DNA from: Candidatus Omnitrophica bacterium UBA6215
GTDB lineage: Bacteria > Omnitrophota > Gorgyraeia > Pluralincolimonadales > Pluralincolimonadaceae
Length of the DNA stretch: 56,804 bases
Assembly: GCA_002421665.1 (NCBI GenBank)
Contig: DISH01000004.1
Location: 447,900-504,703 of the forward strand
Reading direction: 5' to 3'
The translations under genes were made by a program, and so were the position numbers. Of the stretch, positions 29,025 to 48,345 are shown one piece after another (positions within the stretch are counted from its first letter, which is position 1; each line of letters begins with the position of its first letter). A model generated the notes under the pieces. It did not search any database. It was not told the origin of the DNA and saw only the letters and a list, made by a program, of their open reading frames with translations.

Positions 29025-29101
29025 GGGCCTGTAGCTCATCTGGATAGAGCAGCGGTTTCCTAAACCGCGTGCGGGAGGTTCGAGTCCTCTCAGGCCCACC
29101 A
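29025..29101 (+). tRNA. tRNA-Arg (anticodon CCT), CCA encoded
   Basis: Manual cloverleaf: acceptor GGGCCTG/CAGGCCC, D arm GCTC-ATCTGGATA-GAGC, anticodon arm GCGGT-TTCCTAA-ACCGC, variable loop GTGCG, T arm GGAGG-TTCGAGT-CCTCT, discriminator A plus CCA. 77 nt. Confidence 0.9.
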
Positions 29102-40186: not shown

Positions 40187-40771
40187 TTATATCAGATCCA
40201 GATTCTCTTCCTTTGGCGGCGAAAAGACCTCAAAATACTCCGCCGGCCGGCTGCCGAGCGCCTCAAAACCGTGCCTTATATTGGCAGGTATGCAGTATGC
40301 GTCACCGGGCCCCAACACTTGGGATTCCTTGCCTATGGTGACCCTTATTTGGCCGGCAAGCACATAGCCGATCTGCTCGTTATTATGCTTATGGTCCGTG
40401 GCCTGGCCGGGCTCGAGTTTTACCCATGTGAATTGGGCATTCTTGCCGGAGATCACTTTGCCGAATATGCCTTCACGCTTCCTGGCAAATTCCTTGCTTC
40501 CGAAGCCCTTAAAAAAGCCCTGCTGCGGCTTGGCTGACTGCTTTGGCTGCCTTTTATCAAGCAATTCTATGGCCCTTGACTTGTAATTCTCGCGCTTCAG
40601 GTAGCCCTTCTTCCGGAGCGCCTCAAGATAGCCCCTTACCGTGCCGGTAGACGAAAAACCCATCTCCCCCGCTATCTCCCTTATGGTCGGCGGCAGGTTC
40701 TTCTCCACTTTCTCTCGGATAAATTTGAGGACCTTCTCTTGTTTGTCGGTCAATTCTACTCGGGGTTTCAT
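40187..40771 (-). CDS. Transcriptional regulator: LexA-type winged-helix DNA-binding domain fused to a cupin domain
   Basis: N-terminus LTDKQEKVLKFIREKVEKNLPPTIREIAGEMGFSSTGTVRGYLEALRKKGYL resembles the LexA DNA-binding domain. The C-terminus is cupin-like (EPGQATDHKHNNEQIGYVLAGQIRVTIG...GPGDAYCIPANIRHGFEA), with no S24 peptidase Ser/Lys. The ATG at 40771 is preferred over the track TTG at 40807, which is the -35 box. Confidence 0.75.
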   Translation of the reverse strand: MKPRVELTDKQEKVLKFIREKVEKNLPPTIREIAGEMGFSSTGTVRGYLEALRKKGYLKRENYKSRAIELLDKRQPKQSAKPQQGFFKGFGSKEFARKREGIFGKVISGKNAQFTWVKLEPGQATDHKHNNEQIGYVLAGQIRVTIGKESQVLGPGDAYCIPANIRHGFEALGSRPAEYFEVFSPPKEENLDLI

Positions 40772-40778
40772 AGGCAGG

Positions 40779-40807
40779 AATATACCACACATTTGTGTGG
40801 GTGTCAA
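40779..40807 (-). promoter_or_regulatory. Promoter with embedded palindromic operator; leaderless transcript of the LexA-wHTH/cupin gene
   Basis: Read on the - strand: TTGACA (40807-40802), 17 nt, TATATT (40784-40779), 7 nt, ATG (40771). The spacer contains the perfect palindrome CCACACA-AA-TGTGTGG (40785-40800). Confidence 0.6.
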
Positions 40808-40844
40808 GAATTTTTAGACGGGCTTGAATCTCAGGGTTCCCTAA

Positions 40845-43166
40845 CTAGCATTGTTCTCTAAAATTTACCCTTTTCGTTTCAAGTCCATATTTTTCAAACT
40901 TATAACGAATATATGATGACATCTCATCCTCGTGAGTTGACATAAATATCTGTCTATCAGAAAATTCATTTCTTAAAATCTCTATCAGTCCCGCCATATT
41001 TATTTCATCCAGTGTCTGGACAGGATCATCGATAAACAACACTTTATATTTTTCGGAATATCTTTTATTCAATGTCATAGTAAATGCAATTATCAACACG
41101 GCTAATTGACCTGCACTCATTGAAAATACGGCATCATGTTGTGATTTTACGGAACTCTCACAAAATCTGATCCCATTATCAGTAGCTATAAATAGCCCGA
41201 GACCGCCCTGGTAATCCTGTGCTATCCTTCCAGAATAAACATGAAACAATATTTCAACATTTTTAATAAGATCGACGCGATATTTAAACAGTGAGGTTTT
41301 ATACACATCCTTCAAATCTTTGAGCTTATCTGTAATCTGACTCGATGTTTTATAATCATTTAATTTCTTTTCATATTGTTCTTTTTTGTCTTTCATAGTT
41401 ACACTCTGATATATCATATATTGCCATTTCAAATATTTTCTTTTCTCTTCAATATTATCAACTGTAATCATTTTTATTTTATCCCATTTGCTATTAAAAT
41501 ATTCAACAAAATAATCACTATAATAAGAATAGATATTTTTTCCGTTAATAGAATATTTTTTATTTTCTATTTCTTTTACTAATAAATAATATTTTTCATC
41601 AAGTTGTTCTGTCTTTTCGCACATAGCCTTATTAATTTGTACACCAATCGATTCCAGCTCCGTATATATCTCATGTAATTCGTTTTCTTGTCGCTTTGCT
41701 TCTTTTAATCCATCAATAAATTTTTTATCAATATTATTATTTTCTAAATAAGCGTTAAAATACTTAATTATTGGGATAATAAATTCATTCTCATAGTTCT
41801 TTAGCGCAGTATTAAATTTTGTTTGCGATTTGTTGGTTATTTGGGCCAACAATTTTGATTTTTCTTCCAATTTTAATTTTAACTGCTTTGCTGACTCCCA
41901 TTCATAGCCACACAGAGGACATTCTTTTTGATCTTCATATATATTTTGCAATTTATAAAAGTGAGATATAAAAGCATCCCTTGAATCTTTTAGCAAGGCT
42001 TCAACCTTAGATAGCGCGTCCATTTGATTATATAATTCACGAATTTTTGTTTGGACATTATAATATGTTTTAATATCAACTATTTTACTAACCATCTCTG
42101 AAAGAATCCCTAATTCCGCCTTTTCTTCTATCACTGTTGATTTGATATCTTTATTGCATTTGCTAATGTATTCAATTATAGATTGCTGTATTATGTAAAT
42201 GTTTTTATATTTTTCATAATCATTTAAGTGTTTATAGTATAATACTATTAACTTAAGCTGATTGTCTTTGTTTAATATTTTATCGATTCTATTATTGATT
42301 TGCATTTTCTTGTATTCTTCTGCATTAATAACTAGATTTTTAATTCTATCTAGTAGGCCATCTTCGCCTATCCACTCAGAATATTGTCCGGTCTTAAAGT
42401 CAACATTCTCATTGTCCCATATACAGTTTTTCCATTCTAGCAATTTAAAATATAAAGGTTTATGCCTAGTATCGACTATTTCATTTGTATTATCTGATAT
42501 TTCTTTCTCTAGAGCATCTAATTCATCTTTTTTCTCTTTACCGCACATTTTCCTAAGCGCATTATATAATGTTTCGATTTTGCTTTGACGATTTTCATAT
42601 TCATCTGTATTGAACAAATATGCAATATTTTCTTGCCTCGTTTTTTCTTTATTTTTTAATAAATATGTATTTTCTTCTTGTTCTACATAATTAAGGAAAT
42701 GAAAATTATCACGGTAATATTCACCCATGATTTTCGTCATAAAAGCTTGTTCGTTGTTAATAATTTTCCCTTCTCTATCTTCATATTTATCTAGTTCATA
42801 TAGTTTTAAATATGATATAAATTCATCGACATTTTTTGCACTTATTAGGTTATGTCTTAATCCTTTTCTCATAATAACTATATTCTCCCCATCTACCTCT
42901 AATTCAGCTTTTATAATAAGGTCTCCTCCTTGTTTATTTAAGAAATAACTCCCTCTTTCTCTTGCTGATACGAGAACATCTTTTTCTAACTCTCTATATC
43001 TCCGTATTTTACCCGTAAGAAGAAGCTCGATCGCATCAAAAAAAGACGTTTTCCCAAATCCATTGGGTCCATCAAATATGATTACATTAGCTGAATTAAA
43101 TTCTTCCGAAAATGTTTTAAATATTTTGAAGCTTTCGATTGATATTTTATTGATTCTGATTGCCAT
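40845..43166 (-). CDS. lmuB: Rad50/SMC-like ABC ATPase with long coiled coil and central CxxC hook (LmuB-like, ABC-three-component ATPase)
   Basis: Walker A FDGPNGFGKTS (nt 43044-43070). About 460 aa of heptad-rich K/E/L/I sequence. CPLC exactly mid-coil (track residues 420-423, nt 41910-41921). Signature-like SMSAGQLAV, Walker B KVLFIDDPVQTLD, H-loop FMSTHEDE. Start ATG 43166 (GAGGA SD) is preferred over 43178. Confidence 0.85.
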   Translation of the reverse strand: MAIRINKISIESFKIFKTFSEEFNSANVIIFDGPNGFGKTSFFDAIELLLTGKIRRYRELEKDVLVSARERGSYFLNKQGGDLIIKAELEVDGENIVIMRKGLRHNLISAKNVDEFISYLKLYELDKYEDREGKIINNEQAFMTKIMGEYYRDNFHFLNYVEQEENTYLLKNKEKTRQENIAYLFNTDEYENRQSKIETLYNALRKMCGKEKKDELDALEKEISDNTNEIVDTRHKPLYFKLLEWKNCIWDNENVDFKTGQYSEWIGEDGLLDRIKNLVINAEEYKKMQINNRIDKILNKDNQLKLIVLYYKHLNDYEKYKNIYIIQQSIIEYISKCNKDIKSTVIEEKAELGILSEMVSKIVDIKTYYNVQTKIRELYNQMDALSKVEALLKDSRDAFISHFYKLQNIYEDQKECPLCGYEWESAKQLKLKLEEKSKLLAQITNKSQTKFNTALKNYENEFIIPIIKYFNAYLENNNIDKKFIDGLKEAKRQENELHEIYTELESIGVQINKAMCEKTEQLDEKYYLLVKEIENKKYSINGKNIYSYYSDYFVEYFNSKWDKIKMITVDNIEEKRKYLKWQYMIYQSVTMKDKKEQYEKKLNDYKTSSQITDKLKDLKDVYKTSLFKYRVDLIKNVEILFHVYSGRIAQDYQGGLGLFIATDNGIRFCESSVKSQHDAVFSMSAGQLAVLIIAFTMTLNKRYSEKYKVLFIDDPVQTLDEINMAGLIEILRNEFSDRQIFMSTHEDEMSSYIRYKFEKYGLETKRVNFREQC

Positions 43167-43863
43167 GTATATCCTCATCTAATAAAGACTTCAATTTTTT
43201 AAATATTTTGGAATCTGTCTTATTAAAATCCAAATCATCAGACAATATACTGTCAAATTCCGTATCAATAAGTTTGTCTATACTTGATAAATGTATAGCT
43301 GCAACCGCTTCGTCTTTCTCTTTGAAAAGAGGCTGAAGGCTCGCATCATTTTCCATTACAACCGGTAGAAAAGGAAGTTTGATCATAATACGATATAATA
43401 GTGCTTCCCATGTCTGGTTGCTTGTATTAACCTTATATCTATCAAATATCTTGTTGTCAATCGCTTGTTTTATGATGAACTCATAGCAGTCTTTATCCGA
43501 AATATTTCTTTTAAGGTCTACGATTTCTTTTGTAGAATAAGCTAACACATATTTTTTAAAAAAGAACGGATTTTCTTCAATTTCCATTTTTGTTTTTTTA
43601 AATATTAGTTTGTCAATATCGCCTTCTTTTGTGTTCCATAATATTAGCATAGATAGATTTTTGTCTACATCTTCATATTGATATACTTGCTTACACAACT
43701 TGAAGTACGATGGCTGCTTTTCTATAATATTTGCAACATCATCTTCGACAATAATCCAATATTGCTTTTTATCGTCTTCTTTGTGTTTAAGTATATGTAC
43801 GTTGTTAATTTCTTTGCATTCATAGCCACTTTTTAGAAATACCTGTTTAATAATAGTAATCAT
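43147..43863 (-). CDS. 238-aa protein in the position of the Lamassu LmuC / ABC-3C middle component
   Basis: No motif recognised. The call rests on size, position between effector and ATPase, the ATGA overlap with the upstream gene and a 20-nt overlap with the ATPase gene. Confidence 0.5.
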   Translation of the reverse strand: MITIIKQVFLKSGYECKEINNVHILKHKEDDKKQYWIIVEDDVANIIEKQPSYFKLCKQVYQYEDVDKNLSMLILWNTKEGDIDKLIFKKTKMEIEENPFFFKKYVLAYSTKEIVDLKRNISDKDCYEFIIKQAIDNKIFDRYKVNTSNQTWEALLYRIMIKLPFLPVVMENDASLQPLFKEKDEAVAAIHLSSIDKLIDTEFDSILSDDLDFNKTDSKIFKKLKSLLDEDIHGNQNQ

Positions 43864-45158
43864 GCGATATGCTCCTTTGCCCTACTTAGAGACACTAATG
43901 ATACTTTTTTCCACTTTGTAATTTTGTCATATCTTTCAGGAGAACTATCAACATTTTTTTGTCTACGAATTTGTTCATATACTGATGTAACATCGATTCC
44001 AGTAGTAATTAAATTACCACATTGATATAGGGTATAAAGATTTTTGGGATTATCTACTATATTCATGCAAATATCTTCAGCAAGGTCTTTAGCCGCATGA
44101 ATCGTCGTAGGATAATATGTGGCATCTTCGCCTTGTTTCCAAATAAATGCATTAATACTTTCACAAAAATCCGTTTTTTTCAATTCTTTCAATATATTTA
44201 AGAACGCATGCCTATAACCTTCGTCGGAAGGTGTGTTATCCTTATATTCTTTTATTGAGCCACATTTGAACTCCTTTTGTGGCATTATGCCTTGCATAAA
44301 TTCTTTCACTTGTTTGCTTGTCATATTTTCTATTTGCATCATGTAGTCTGCCATTTTTTTATGAATGGATTCTTCCAAGGGCCCATGTATATTTTCTTGG
44401 TCCTCAATATATTGAAAGTAATATTCGCGGAGACGAACACGAATTTGACATAGCAAATAAACATCGTCTATTGCTGCCGTTGTTAGGTCATCATCGAGTA
44501 TCCTTTTAAACTGCGATAAACCCATTGTTTCAATGTTATCAGAAACGCTGTAATTGGAGTTATGCATTTTTGCGTGAATCATCAATACCTTTTTTTGTAT
44601 AATATCATCAATAATGACTCGCGTTTTTTCTATATAATCAATATTATTTTTAAATAATTCCTCTTTTCGGCATTCTTTATAATATTTTTCAATCATTTGG
44701 TTAATTTTATTATTAATTTGATCGACCGGACATCTATTAGTGCCATCATGATAATTGTATATTTTAACGGGGGCGTATTCTTTTTCAATATCCGCATCGG
44801 ATTTCGAACTTACATCATTGGCTAAATGAAAATAGGCGTACGAACATCTTATTCTGTTAGCATGATTTCTTAATTTTTCAAATGCATTTATTTTTTCCTT
44901 ATTCTTAATATATGTTGTATAAGCGCTAATCCCACTCCGCTCTATTGCTTTAACTTGATGCAACGATTCGACATCGCCATCTTTGTGAATGCAAAAATCT
45001 TCCAAATATTCTAGCTTAAGAGAATATCCACTTTCTTTGCCATCGCACAAAAGTCTAAGAACATGATATATGGCAACTTTCCCTTGATAAATAAAACCGC
45101 TCCAGCTTGGAATTGCACCGCCTGTTGAAGCTCTATGATCTTCGGTCATTCTTATCAT
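43860..45158 (-). CDS. lmuA: LmuA-like effector with N-terminal Cap4/DUF4297-type PD-(D/E)xK nuclease domain
   Basis: N-terminus STGGAIPSWSGFIYQGKVAIYHVLRLL...LKLEYLEDFCIHKDGDVESLHQVKA fits the DUF4297 pattern (GG..GF.YQ ... E..ED ... QVK). The C-terminal ~330 aa are helical and unassigned. The start (45158 or 45149) overlaps the upstream DUF2130 gene. Confidence 0.7.
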   Translation of the reverse strand: MIRMTEDHRASTGGAIPSWSGFIYQGKVAIYHVLRLLCDGKESGYSLKLEYLEDFCIHKDGDVESLHQVKAIERSGISAYTTYIKNKEKINAFEKLRNHANRIRCSYAYFHLANDVSSKSDADIEKEYAPVKIYNYHDGTNRCPVDQINNKINQMIEKYYKECRKEELFKNNIDYIEKTRVIIDDIIQKKVLMIHAKMHNSNYSVSDNIETMGLSQFKRILDDDLTTAAIDDVYLLCQIRVRLREYYFQYIEDQENIHGPLEESIHKKMADYMMQIENMTSKQVKEFMQGIMPQKEFKCGSIKEYKDNTPSDEGYRHAFLNILKELKKTDFCESINAFIWKQGEDATYYPTTIHAAKDLAEDICMNIVDNPKNLYTLYQCGNLITTGIDVTSVYEQIRRQKNVDSSPERYDKITKWKKVSLVSLSRAKEHIA

Positions 45159-46323
45159 TTTCTTCTGGACTTTTAACGGGTAATTCGAGAATTTTAATCT
45201 GTTGTAACGCAGTGCCTGCTAATCCTTCTAAATCTCCATACATGCCAGCAGTATTGGATATAATTTTTTCTATTTGCTTTTCCCTGTTCCCCCAAATACG
45301 TTGCATTGCCCGTTTTTCAGCTTCAAGATCTTCTTTCATAGCCCTGAAGCCATCTACAATCGCAATTACCCGATTACGAAACTCTACACTAGTCACATAA
45401 CTATATATTAGATCCTTTTTATCATCCTTACCACTTTCAACTTCTTTCGCATTGGCTACTTGAATCAATACCATTCGGAGGGCCAGTGACAGGCTAAGCG
45501 CTGATGGAACATCTGTCACCCAGACACCGTTTATCTGGCGAAAATGATGAAATCCCGAAGGCAAGGCTTCGGATACAAGAACTGCAATATCAGCCTTGGC
45601 TTCGCCTTGGTCATCTTTTAGCTTCTGAATCCAAGAATCGCTCCAATTTTTTACACGTTTTGTCTCCCATAATATTTTCCCACACGGACGTCCAGATTGC
45701 GTTTTAACAGTTTGAATAATATCTGCGCCACGTACGCCTTTTGAGACCGGCTCAATTATGTCAAAAGAAAACTCTCGCCTGAACAATTCCTCTATTTCCA
45801 ATTCAAGCACTTCGCCTTGTGCCTGTTGGGAGCCCTGCTCCATTTTTCTCTTTAATTCCTCGACCTGCTTCAGGGTATCCGAGAGTTTTCTGTCTTTCTC
45901 CGCGTCCTTCAGCTTGTGCTGTTCTTCGAACCTCATTAAAACATTGGCTTCAATTCTTCCTCGCTCTTCGTCAATTTTCCTAGCCGTTTCCAACTCAAGT
46001 GCTTTTTCCTTCTCTTCAAGTTCATGCTGTTTTTTACGCAGTGCCAGTTCATTCTCTTGAGCTTGTTTGAGTCTACGATTACTATCTTCCACCTGAAACT
46101 TTAAATCAGCGATTTCAGTGCTAACTACTTCTTCGGCCTGTTTTTTAAGTTTTGATTCGAGCTCTTCGTGTTGTTTTTTAAGACGGACTTGATATTCGAC
46201 TTCTTTTTCGGATAGTTGCATTTCATATTTTTGGCGAGCACGTTCTTCAATATCACGGGACAGAGCATCAGAAAGTGGTATAAGCTCTTCGCATTTAGGA
46301 CACTTTATGAAATCCTGTGGCAT
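45133..46323 (-). CDS. DUF2130 family protein: N-terminal CxxC, long coiled coil, C-terminal restriction-endonuclease-like domain
   Basis: CPKCEE at residues 8-13. About 170 aa of E/K/L/Q coiled coil. C-terminal GEVLELEIEELFRREFSFDIIEPVSKGVRGADIIQTV...GKILWETKRVKNWSDSWIQKLKDDQ...ADIAVLVSEALP matches my memory of PF09903. AAGGAG SD 9 nt upstream of the ATG. Confidence 0.7.
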   Translation of the reverse strand: MPQDFIKCPKCEELIPLSDALSRDIEERARQKYEMQLSEKEVEYQVRLKKQHEELESKLKKQAEEVVSTEIADLKFQVEDSNRRLKQAQENELALRKKQHELEEKEKALELETARKIDEERGRIEANVLMRFEEQHKLKDAEKDRKLSDTLKQVEELKRKMEQGSQQAQGEVLELEIEELFRREFSFDIIEPVSKGVRGADIIQTVKTQSGRPCGKILWETKRVKNWSDSWIQKLKDDQGEAKADIAVLVSEALPSGFHHFRQINGVWVTDVPSALSLSLALRMVLIQVANAKEVESGKDDKKDLIYSYVTSVEFRNRVIAIVDGFRAMKEDLEAEKRAMQRIWGNREKQIEKIISNTAGMYGDLEGLAGTALQQIKILELPVKSPEENDKNDRRS

Positions 46324-46361
46324 ATATTCTGTCTCCTTTTTACAGATATAAGAATTAAGAT

Positions 46362-46718
46362 TCAGATTAACCCTTCATCAAAAACCCAGAATTCTGTAAA
46401 TTCTTCTTTTTTGGCATCGATTTTTGTCGCTTCCAAGCGCCATACGAAACGGTCGCGAGGAGAAGAACCTTTCTTTCCAAAGGTTCCAAACAAACCATCT
46501 AACACTGTTTTGCAGAGATTGTCTAGATCAGATAGTCGTAACCGTGAGTTTGATAGATGGAAATCTATTCGTACGCTGAAGCGGTGTTGTTCAGGAAATT
46601 GCTCAATTTTATTTAATAAATCACGTTTATATTTTCTTATAATAGCCTTCCTCCCCCACACCTTGATCGAAGGCGTTGGGCAGTAACCTAAAACTTTACC
46701 ATGAGCAATTAATTTCAT
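46362..46718 (-). CDS. rusA: RusA-like Holliday-junction resolvase (endodeoxyribonuclease RusA family)
   Basis: 118 aa. VRIDFHLSNSRLRLSDLDNLCKTVLDGL aligns with E. coli RusA [26 protein letters not shown] (from memory). A PTPS motif lies near the N-terminus. The size matches (RusA is 120 aa). Confidence 0.55.
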   Translation of the reverse strand: MKLIAHGKVLGYCPTPSIKVWGRKAIIRKYKRDLLNKIEQFPEQHRFSVRIDFHLSNSRLRLSDLDNLCKTVLDGLFGTFGKKGSSPRDRFVWRLEATKIDAKKEEFTEFWVFDEGLI

Positions 46719-46780
46719 TTTCTAATTTATTTAACAAAGCATACCACGTTTTGGATTCACCACTGACTTTATTTTACTCC

Positions 46781-46818
46781 AAACAAAAACCCTCCGCAAT
46801 CATTATAATTGCAGAGGG
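46781..46818 (-). terminator. Rho-independent terminator of the PEP-CTERM gene; right boundary of the island
   Basis: On the - strand: CCCTCTGCAAT-TATAATG-ATTGCGGAGGG (one mismatch) followed by TTTTTGTTT. Confidence 0.6.
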
Positions 46819-46844
46819 TTGTGATATTTTTGATTAAACGGGAA

Positions 46845-47574: not shown

Positions 47575-48345
47575 CTACTTCTCAAGCCATGTAAAGGCAG
47601 CTTTTATCCTATCCCAATCGGGATAACCGTCCTTAAACGGATACCCGTGAGGCCCCTGGAATAGATCAAGCTCGGTAACCGCGCCATTCTCCCCTAACTG
47701 AAAAACCGCCTTTTTAGCCATCCACAACGGGCAGATCTTATCTTCCAGGCCATGTTGTATGTAGTATTTCTTGCCTTTAGCAAGGGAAAGCGAAGGCAAC
47801 TGATCAATCTTAAATACGGAAGAAAGTACGTAATAACCCTTAAAACAATCCGGATTTGAAAGCGAAATAGCGTAAACCGCGGGGCCGCCGGAAGAAATCC
47901 CGTGCAACCAAATATAGTCAGGATTAATTTTATTCTCTTTTACAACCTCGCCGACCAACTCGGAGACAAACTCCTCGGTTGTAAACCTCATGCCTTTTAC
48001 GACATCTTTACATTTATCTGTAGGCCATGTAATTGTCTGGTCTTTATCCCATTTAGGCGCGACCGGCAAAACTACTATATATCTGTCTCCCAGTGAATTC
48101 CTGATGACATTTTTCCAGAACGGCACGGTCTTTCCCCCATCACCATCCCCGCCTGCAAGCACAACTACAAGACCGCAGCCTTCTTTTGGGACATTATTGG
48201 GCACCAGTATCCAATATTTCATATTGCTATTATTGCGTACCTGCCGTTGGACAGACTTTATCCCCTCAACCTCAGCTTTAACATTAAAAACCGGGGACAA
48301 AAACACAAATATAATTAATACGAGACAGCTAAATCCCTTATTCAC
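47575..48345 (-). CDS. Secreted alpha/beta-hydrolase (carboxylesterase/phospholipase-type)
   Basis: Signal peptide. GxSxG nucleophile elbow HGISSGG. C-terminal HG..D/H region (IQHGLEDKICP...GPHGYP). Confidence 0.7.
   Translation of the reverse strand: MNKGFSCLVLIIFVFLSPVFNVKAEVEGIKSVQRQVRNNSNMKYWILVPNNVPKEGCGLVVVLAGGDGDGGKTVPFWKNVIRNSLGDRYIVVLPVAPKWDKDQTITWPTDKCKDVVKGMRFTTEEFVSELVGEVVKENKINPDYIWLHGISSGGPAVYAISLSNPDCFKGYYVLSSVFKIDQLPSLSLAKGKKYYIQHGLEDKICPLWMAKKAVFQLGENGAVTELDLFQGPHGYPFKDGYPDWDRIKAAFTWLEK

Follow-up and report, generated by a model that had tools for sequence, protein, structure and literature searches.

We analyzed a 56.8-kb stretch of DNA from Candidatus Omnitrophica bacterium UBA6215 (56,804 nucleotides of contig DISH01000004.1, which we call the window), and in particular a block of five tightly packed minus-strand genes within it. 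These genes encode a RusA-like protein, a DUF2130 protein, and the LmuA, LmuC, and LmuB proteins of a Lamassu defense system. The block is probably a small defense island at a fixed variable site in the Candidatus Omnitrophota chromosome, and it appears to consist of three independently exchangeable, co-oriented modules instead of a five-component Lamassu system. On one side of the site is a PEP-CTERM/CBM_4_9 gene, and on the other is the gene for a LexA-like regulator. We read the block as a mosaic because its guanine-plus-cytosine (GC) content drops in two steps, because homology to a syntenic contig breaks off sharply inside it, and because its modules have been swapped independently in two related contigs (L097 and L099).

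A preliminary description, made from the sequence of the window, had offered two possibilities: an extended five-component variant of Lamassu, or two stacked systems that share one transcript. The first does not fit the comparative data, since the modules are swapped independently and differ in GC content, and since the five-gene order recurs only among contigs that are at least 94% identical (L101 and L089). The second is right about stacking, but there are three modules rather than two. If the block is a mosaic, then an over-interpretation can be removed: its tight packing and overlaps would come from the insertion of a cassette into the tail of a resident gene, and not from a co-evolved machine of five proteins.

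Probable exchange of modules at a fixed site

Exact-sequence look-ups returned the same strain only. The closest relatives of the DUF2130 protein are from Candidatus Omnitrophota, and the contigs that carry them show synteny with the window. The same five genes are found where DUF2130 is 94-96% identical (L101 and L089). In L099, where DUF2130 is 86% identical, a CBM_4_9 gene is followed by a small cupin gene, the RusA-like gene, DUF2130, and an overlapping gene for a PDC-S06-like ATPase of 497 amino acids (aa). In L097, where DUF2130 is also 86% identical, the order is CBAH, a 256-aa gene, CBM_4_9, two DitA-like genes, DUF2130, PDC-S06 (E = 1.5e-198), a 125-aa gene, and LexA. L096 (89%) has a different island, in which DUF2130 is followed by PDC-S06 and then an AAA_15/nuclease gene. 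At lower identities, DUF2130 is overlapped by an OLD/GajA-type ATPase, as classified by PADLOC (L010; 79%), is overlapped by an ATPase with AAA_15 and an OLD-type TOPRIM domain, identified by Pfam only (L009; 71%), or is followed by PDC-S06 (L011; 60%).

Comparing the window to L097 with blastn gives sharp breakpoints. Synteny runs from 49640 to 46833, DUF2130 alone is matched from 46338 to 45179, nothing is matched across the trio, and homology is back from 40825. L097, L099, and L096 have all kept DUF2130 (80-85% identity at the DNA level), with changes in both of its neighbors. In syntenic Omnitrophota contigs, PDC-S06 ATPases replace the Lamassu trio exactly, from the stop codon of DUF2130 to the LexA-like promoter. 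The RusA-like gene is exchanged independently of DUF2130, with DitA-like genes in its place in L097. Even for pairs of DUF2130 proteins that are 81-97% identical, the downstream ATPases are unrelated (under 30% identity, over short stretches). The sole pair that looks co-inherited is from L096 and L011 (63% identity for DUF2130 and 61% for PDC-S06).

The two DitA-like genes of L097 (3448-4984) encode proteins of 251 aa and 262 aa, the latter with DUF5677. Between them, these proteins match both halves of PADLOC's DitA (N-terminal and C-terminal), so they look like a split DitA-like system.

The junction between DUF2130 and the trio is informative as well. The conserved core of DUF2130 stops at IKILELP, and beyond that point every relative has a short, acidic tail that is variable. 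The DUF2130 and LmuA genes overlap by 26 nucleotides (nt), or by 17 nt if LmuA begins at its second ATG, and both possible start codons (45158 and 45149) fall within the end of DUF2130 that encodes this tail. Because the start of LmuA sits in the variable tail, the overlap is best read as a consequence of joining cassettes and not as evolved coupling.

Base composition also separates the modules. From about 51% in the host, GC content drops to 39-41% in the upstream pair (38.7% for the RusA-like gene and 41.4% for DUF2130) and then to 29-33% in the trio (33.2% for LmuA, 29.6% for LmuC, and 28.7% for LmuB). The preliminary description had given about 20-23% from lines counted by hand, but the island is not uniformly that low: the genes are at 28.7-41.4%, and the lowest 400-nt window is at 23%. 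For the flanks, where it had given 53-58%, the genes are at 49-55%, and the window minus the island is at 51.4%. At third codon positions, GC content is 25-35% in the island versus 55-73% in most of the flanking genes.

As described previously, we saw no sign of a dedicated mobility system. No integrase or transposase reading frame adjoined the block in look-ups of open reading frames (ORFs) and proteins, and a repeat search of its flanks gave only AT-rich chance matches, with no att-like direct or inverted repeats. No Rfam family was matched within the island. The only RNA gene that was detected in the window, a tRNA-Arg(CCT) at 29025-29101 (+), lies 11 kb away, and nothing obvious connects it with the island.

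Defense-island hotspots are known to exchange cassettes between conserved flanking genes. The site resembles these hotspots in its fixed flanks, interchangeable defense cargo, low GC content, lack of an integrase, and sharp homology breakpoints. It differs in that one edge of the slot falls within a conserved nuclease gene, in its 3' tail, and in that the cargo of the slot is strongly biased towards ABC ATPases.

We propose that DUF2130 is the resident anchor of the site, or the constant element of the slot, and that the Lamassu cassette is the most recent arrival, from a donor with lower GC content. The comparative data suggest that the trio would have been inserted by recombination between the 3' end of DUF2130 and the LexA-like promoter, displacing a PDC-S06-type ATPase cassette. 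The RusA-family resolvase, in turn, would roam among mobile elements and defense islands. If so, the site is a clean natural example of the exchange of defense cassettes, with sharp breakpoints, in a poorly studied lineage (Omnitrophota).

The three proposed modules

The assignment of the last three genes to LmuA, LmuC, and LmuB, which was first made by eye, is borne out by profile searches. LmuB matches PADLOC's LmuB (PDLC03859) over its full length (E = 4.4e-61), and it matches Rad50 heads in PDB. It has a Walker A motif (GPNGFGKTS, residues 33-41), an SAGQ signature, a Walker B motif (VLFIDD), and a single zinc hook (CPLCG, residues 416-420). In an alignment, these motifs are kept in 8/8 related LmuB proteins (773-794 aa). 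LmuA matches CTD1 (E = 2.4e-30) and PADLOC's LmuA (E = 7.4e-22). Its match to Cap4_nuclease from Pfam is below threshold (E = 7.4e-4, 20.2 bits, versus a cutoff of 26.2 bits), but D54, Q68, and K70 are invariant across 30 homologs, and several of the homologs have precomputed hits to PF14130. A profile of LmuA detected no solved relative in PDB by sequence. LmuC matches MComp1 from Pfam above its cutoff (E = 3.1e-10), and a homolog of LmuC is present in all eight related trios.

In long Lamassu systems, LmuB has around 800 aa, a Walker B motif of the form hhhhDD, and a single CxxC, and Cap4 is among the four types of effectors (PMC12663957). Because the LmuB of the window (about 800 aa, with hhhhDD and a single CxxC hook) and its Cap4 effector all fit this definition, we conclude that these three genes make up a genuine long Lamassu gene set, with every component present and Cap4 as the effector. 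The trio shares with this class the gene order A-C-B, overlapping ORFs, an MComp1 middle component, an LmuA with a Cap4-type nuclease and CTD1, and a 773-aa LmuB with Walker A, the hhhhDD Walker B, the single CxxC hook, and the ABC signature. Given that the nearest LmuA (other than itself) is only about 41% identical, the trio is a divergent representative of a known but little-studied class. DdmABC from Vibrio cholerae (also known as Lamassu Vc-Cap4) belongs to the same superfamily. However, the Lamassu systems with solved structures are of the short type, and Vc-Cap4 lacks the zinc hook, whereas the trio is of the long type and has the hook. The trio also differs from known Lamassu systems in being directly downstream of, and overlapping, a DUF2130 gene.

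In characterized Lamassu systems, LmuB2-LmuC keeps LmuA inactive until DNA ends or phage replication intermediates, along with ATP hydrolysis, free it; the freed LmuA tetramerizes and cuts DNA non-specifically, which leads to abortive infection (PMC12663957). By analogy with the solved systems, a dimer of LmuB from the window, together with LmuC, would keep monomeric LmuA inactive and would scan DNA. Once phage DNA ends or replication intermediates are bound and ATP is hydrolyzed, LmuA would be released and would tetramerize through its C-terminal domain, and its Cap4 nuclease would then degrade DNA and abort the infection. By the same analogy, the trio would act against phages or plasmids, form an LmuA1B2C1 complex, and sense DNA ends.

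The 396-aa protein belongs to DUF2130 (PF09903), as was thought: the match covers 253 of the 255 model positions (E = 5.5e-70). It has an invariant N-terminal motif (C8-P-x-C11), about 130 residues of coiled coil, and a C-terminal PD-(D/E)XK domain, whose motif (D201...E220-x-K222) is invariant in 16 sequences. Both the full-length match and the D...ExK motif tie it to the uncharacterized family PF09903/COG4487. Members of the family are 43-50% identical across phyla, which is unusually high conservation. A published list of PD-(D/E)XK families includes DUF2130 without a known function (PMC3424549), and we found it in the literature only as such. A DUF2130 profile had no informative relatives in PDB, and a scan of the viral contigs in IMG/VR gave no confirmed match. 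The coiled-coil region (residues 1-180) has vimentin-like matches in PDB and a weak match to the coiled coil of PADLOC's LmuB. We also considered a relationship to RmuC (PF02646), but hhalign gave a probability of just 0.1; the likeness is limited to the architecture of a coiled coil plus PD-(D/E)XK.

The 118-aa protein was originally described as RusA (PF05866). As a single sequence, it is below the gathering score of that family (E = 0.0026 and 18.8 bits, versus 22.8 bits), but the family profile and the predicted fold both support the assignment. A profile of 20 sequences from the family matched RusA in PDB (1Q8R; E = 3.8e-6) across residues 28-118 of 120, and 11/20 members of the extended family match RusA from Pfam with E <= 0.01 (9.6e-15 at best). 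An AlphaFold 2 model that was built from the 20-sequence alignment had a pLDDT (predicted local distance difference test) score of 83, and its top 7 Foldseek matches in PDB were all RusA (probability 1.0, template modeling scores of 0.55-0.68). An earlier model from an 8-sequence alignment was unusable (pLDDT of 41), and a shallow profile had matched only Toc34 in PDB, which was spurious. With the register of the alignment fixed by the sequence of the D70N RusA structure, D64, D66, K70, and D89 align with D70, D72, K76, and D91 of RusA from E. coli. The conserved residues of the RusA-like protein are D64, D66, N67, K70, D89, and K99, and in the family, conservation reaches 90% or more at D64, D66, N67, D89, and K99.

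The 118-aa protein thus resembles RusA from E. coli and lambdoid prophages (PDB 1Q8R and 2H8C) in its length (118 versus 120 aa), its fold, and its catalytic constellation (DxDN..K...D plus D...K). It differs in being only about 20% identical and in belonging to a very small subfamily: we found 7 close relatives, and 19 representatives among 1.84 billion proteins. The sequence and the modeled fold argue that it is a rare, divergent, but genuine member of the RusA family, and a putative endonuclease for Holliday junctions or other branched DNA. At the sequence level, the motifs of all three modules are intact: the ATPase motifs and hook of LmuB, the nuclease motif of LmuA, the PD-(D/E)XK motif of DUF2130, and the catalytic constellation of RusA.

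Relatives of the RusA-like protein at 64-77% identity are each found in a different context, and always without DUF2130. In one, it follows an NYN gene and a 161-aa gene and is followed by a 280-aa gene. In another, it follows a PLD gene and a 569-aa gene and is followed by a 254-aa gene. In L094 (1505-3741; 64% identity), it is 40 nt upstream of a 455-aa ATPase (AAA_15/DUF3696) that is similar to HEC-03B or NsnB, with a 151-aa gene thereafter; this 40-nt spacing resembles the spacing between the RusA-like gene and DUF2130 in the window. In a fourth context, genes of 176 aa and 641 aa follow. In L090 (13-1961; 76% identity), the gene immediately before it encodes a large serine recombinase with Resolvase, Recombinase, and Zn_ribbon_recom domains, which suggests that the small subfamily travels with integrative elements. 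Instead of residing in the nin regions of lambdoid phages, these proteins head varied defense-type cassettes or adjoin a serine recombinase. The presence of a rare RusA subfamily in defense islands and mobile elements is a modestly novel lead. Aligned upstream regions of the RusA-like genes showed no common promoter; an extended -10-like element (TGnTAnAAT) was present upstream in L090 and L095 only.

DUF2130 beside ABC-type defense ATPases, and other explanations

Several observations weigh against the view of DUF2130 as just an anchor. An ABC-type defense ATPase follows DUF2130 in 7 of its 8 closest relatives, usually overlapping it or within 50 nt. We also examined 80 DUF2130 loci on contigs from one genome per species, across many phyla. 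All 10 of the matches to OLD, PDC-S06, or LmuB-like ATPases were at most two gene positions away from DUF2130 and shared its strand, and there were no such ATPases among about 250 large genes further out (Fisher p = 0.0013, with the caveats that the queries were themselves taken from genes adjacent to DUF2130, which causes ascertainment bias, and that two of the loci are from sister species of Bradyrhizobium). A passive anchor would collect all kinds of defense genes, yet it is mainly ABC ATPases that we see. Furthermore, the order DUF2130-LmuA-LmuC-LmuB occurs a second time, in divergent form and elsewhere on the chromosome, in L103, with a gap of 3 nt between DUF2130 and LmuA (identities to the window of 66% for DUF2130, 37% for LmuA, 36% for LmuC, and 43% for LmuB). 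And because there is no terminator or convincing promoter between the five genes (see below), they may interact functionally through co-expression.

The arrangement in L103 (7040-14304) is on a 517-kb contig of a metagenome-assembled genome from NCBI. It is preceded by a 242-aa gene and by a 299-aa protein with matches to TIR effectors and nucleoside deoxyribosyltransferases. Its GC content also steps down, from about 55% in the host to 44% in DUF2130 and 36-38% in the trio. To judge only from the similarity of DUF2130, the lineage of L103 may be near Omnitrophota. In the two Bradyrhizobium loci (L057:11558-14023 and L058:7775-10240), the gene after DUF2130 shares its strand and encodes an ABC ATPase of 821 aa with weak similarity to LmuB (E of about 3e-7); we did not detect LmuA or LmuC at either locus.

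The strongest rival explanation is that DUF2130 is a generic functional partner of interchangeable ABC-ATPase modules for abortive infection. The locus would then be a four-gene unit of DUF2130 plus Lamassu, with the RusA-like gene as a bystander. PrrC is a known abortive-infection module that is embedded in EcoprrI; similarly, DUF2130 could be a first-line or DNA-end-processing nuclease whose activity or inhibition the downstream ATPase monitors, or it might produce or trim the DNA ends that such ATPases sense. Besides the adjacency and shared orientation across phyla, the independent pairing with Lamassu in L103, and the co-divergence of DUF2130 and PDC-S06 between L096 and L011, this explanation is favored by the strong PADLOC neighbors at about 15-25% of DUF2130 loci and by an RmuC gene after a Lamassu whose LmuA is 41% identical (L104, 1-9989). 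Upstream of that trio are a type III restriction enzyme and a 301-aa gene, and the RmuC-domain protein (577 aa) is downstream. This protein has the coiled-coil and PD-(D/E)XK architecture of DUF2130, but there is no detectable relationship between the sequences, which reduces the weight of the parallel.

Other evidence goes against a partnership. Near-identical DUF2130 proteins lie beside unrelated families of ATPases, which argues against a specific protein interface. Around 85% of the DUF2130 loci lack a defense neighbor of this kind: the neighbors are heterogeneous and include many housekeeping genes, as well as OLD/TOPRIM, RhuM, Fic, restriction enzymes, and Vsr. The conservation of DUF2130 across phyla is unusual for a defense gene, the two Lamassu-linked DUF2130 genes (from the window and from L103) do not group together, and the ATPase queries were biased as described above. 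Also, published Lamassu systems function as three genes (PMC12663957). Overall, we consider the partnership unlikely, though well ahead of the explanations that follow.

A broader form of the idea, which we hold just as tentatively, is that DUF2130 defines an undescribed modular architecture. The conserved nuclease would head operons whose second part is an ABC-ATPase module for abortive infection, which could be OLD/GajA-like, PDC-S06/AAA_13, or long Lamassu. Its role would be that of a first-line nuclease common to all of them, or of a guarded target, with the ATPase module being triggered when a phage perturbs it. The window would hold the Lamassu version, with a defense-island RusA subfamily that adds the processing of branched DNA. 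As a lead, the sequence comparisons suggest that DUF2130 specifically and co-directionally adjoins interchangeable ABC-type defense ATPases (OLD, PDC-S06, and Lamassu) across phyla. This appears to be undescribed and is modestly novel: we found no paper that mentions the adjacency of DUF2130 to such ATPases, nor one that ties DUF2130, RusA, or RmuC to Lamassu. It would link a large, conserved, and uncharacterized nuclease family to several families of defense ATPases.

It is improbable that the RusA-like and DUF2130 proteins are a resident pair for repair or recombination (compare RusA and RmuC), with no role in defense, and that Lamassu simply landed alongside. Such a pair would fit with the strong conservation of DUF2130 and the housekeeping genes that are often beside it, with the retention of the pair in L099 next to another downstream cassette, and with the lack of a match of either protein to any PADLOC model. 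But both genes have the base composition of the island, at all positions and at third codon positions, far below that of the host. The RusA-like family is very rare and is found beside a serine recombinase and defense-type cassettes, instead of in conserved repair contexts, and in L097 and L096 the two genes are no longer together.

The preliminary description had proposed counting how often DUF2130 or RusA-like genes lie near Lamassu, and our counts speak against a conserved five-gene unit. Neither LmuA nor a RusA-like gene was found at any of the 80 DUF2130 loci from genomes. Conversely, among 8 independent Lamassu trios that are related to the one in the window, DUF2130 is absent from 6 and the RusA-like gene from 7; only the window type and L103 have DUF2130 upstream. 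Five of these 8 trios came from scanning the viral contigs of IMG/VR with LmuA, and none of the five has DUF2130 or a RusA-like gene; tblastn of LmuA against plasmids gave only distant ABC-3C proteins (at most 31% identity) or partial matches.

An extended five-component Lamassu, with the RusA-like and DUF2130 proteins as accessory nucleases that might turn branched or cruciform phage DNA into ends for LmuBC, is very improbable and is largely refuted by the comparative data: although the genes are closely spaced, with no terminator detected among them, keep their order in L101 and L089, and would make mechanistic sense given that Lamassu senses DNA ends, the RusA-like gene is missing from L103 and from every other Lamassu locus that we examined, is replaced independently of DUF2130 in L097, and has relatives beside unrelated cassettes, while the modules differ in GC content and the full order is confined to near-identical strains.

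Layout of the locus and neighboring genes

An ORF scan confirmed the five minus-strand genes at the coordinates given beforehand, as well as the overlaps and the AAGGAG in the 38-nt gap (Table 1). This Shine-Dalgarno sequence is 8 nt 5' of the ATG of DUF2130. Farther along, the junction of LmuA with LmuC is an ATGA overlap, and that of LmuC with LmuB is an overlap of 20 nt. The block is also bracketed by a terminator and a promoter-like site, as had been reported. The terminator marks the upstream edge of the variable region, close to where synteny with L097 stops.

Table 1. Features of the island and its edges, with positions in the window.
Feature	Position	Strand	Details
RusA-like (module A)	46362-46718	-	118 aa; ORF scan
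Spacer between RusA-like and DUF2130	46324-46361	-	38 nt; AAGGAG Shine-Dalgarno for DUF2130; sequence
DUF2130 (module B)	45133-46323	-	396 aa; ORF scan
LmuA (module C1)	43860-45158	-	432 aa; Cap4-type nuclease N-domain and ABC-3C CTD1
LmuC (module C2)	43147-43863	-	238 aa; ABC-3C middle component 1
LmuB (module C3)	40845-43166 (or 43178)	-	773 (or 777) aa; long-type SMC/Rad50-like ABC ATPase
Intrinsic terminator of upstream PEP-CTERM/CBM_4_9 gene	46788-46820	-	15-bp stem and T-run
Promoter-like site of LexA-HTH/cupin gene	40779-40807	-	11/12 sigma-70-like, extended -10
Upstream swap junction of cassette slot	45141-45179		DNA homology to L099 ends at 45141, to L097 and L096 at 45179
Downstream swap junction, including promoter-like site	40779-40825	-	Synteny with L097 is back from 40825

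Across the whole region, promoter-like sites were not in excess (31, versus 28.6 expected from shuffled sequences), and neither were terminator-like sites (5 versus 5.1). Since these counts are close to the shuffled expectation, only the two strong flanking sites carry weight, and no internal transcription signals can be claimed. The scan found no terminator and no convincing internal promoter between the five genes, which are probably read from one transcript. There was also no terminator between the stop codon of LmuB and the promoter-like site at the downstream edge. Because of this lack of terminators, co-transcription of all five genes, with read-through into the LexA-like gene, is likely.

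The LexA-like gene downstream of the island (40187-40771, -) encodes a fusion of a LexA DNA-binding domain and a cupin domain. Its syntenic counterpart in L097 (9522-10118) is a canonical LexA, with helix-turn-helix (HTH) and Peptidase_S24 domains. DNA homology between the two is limited to the promoter and the HTH part (40825-40554), so the regulator at the edge of the island looks like the product of a domain swap.

On the other side of the island, a gene at 47575-48345 (-) encodes a secreted-looking 256-aa protein with a weak match to Peptidase_S9. It is syntenic in L097 and L001, and its GC content (44% overall and 47.5% at third codon positions) is below that of its neighbors.

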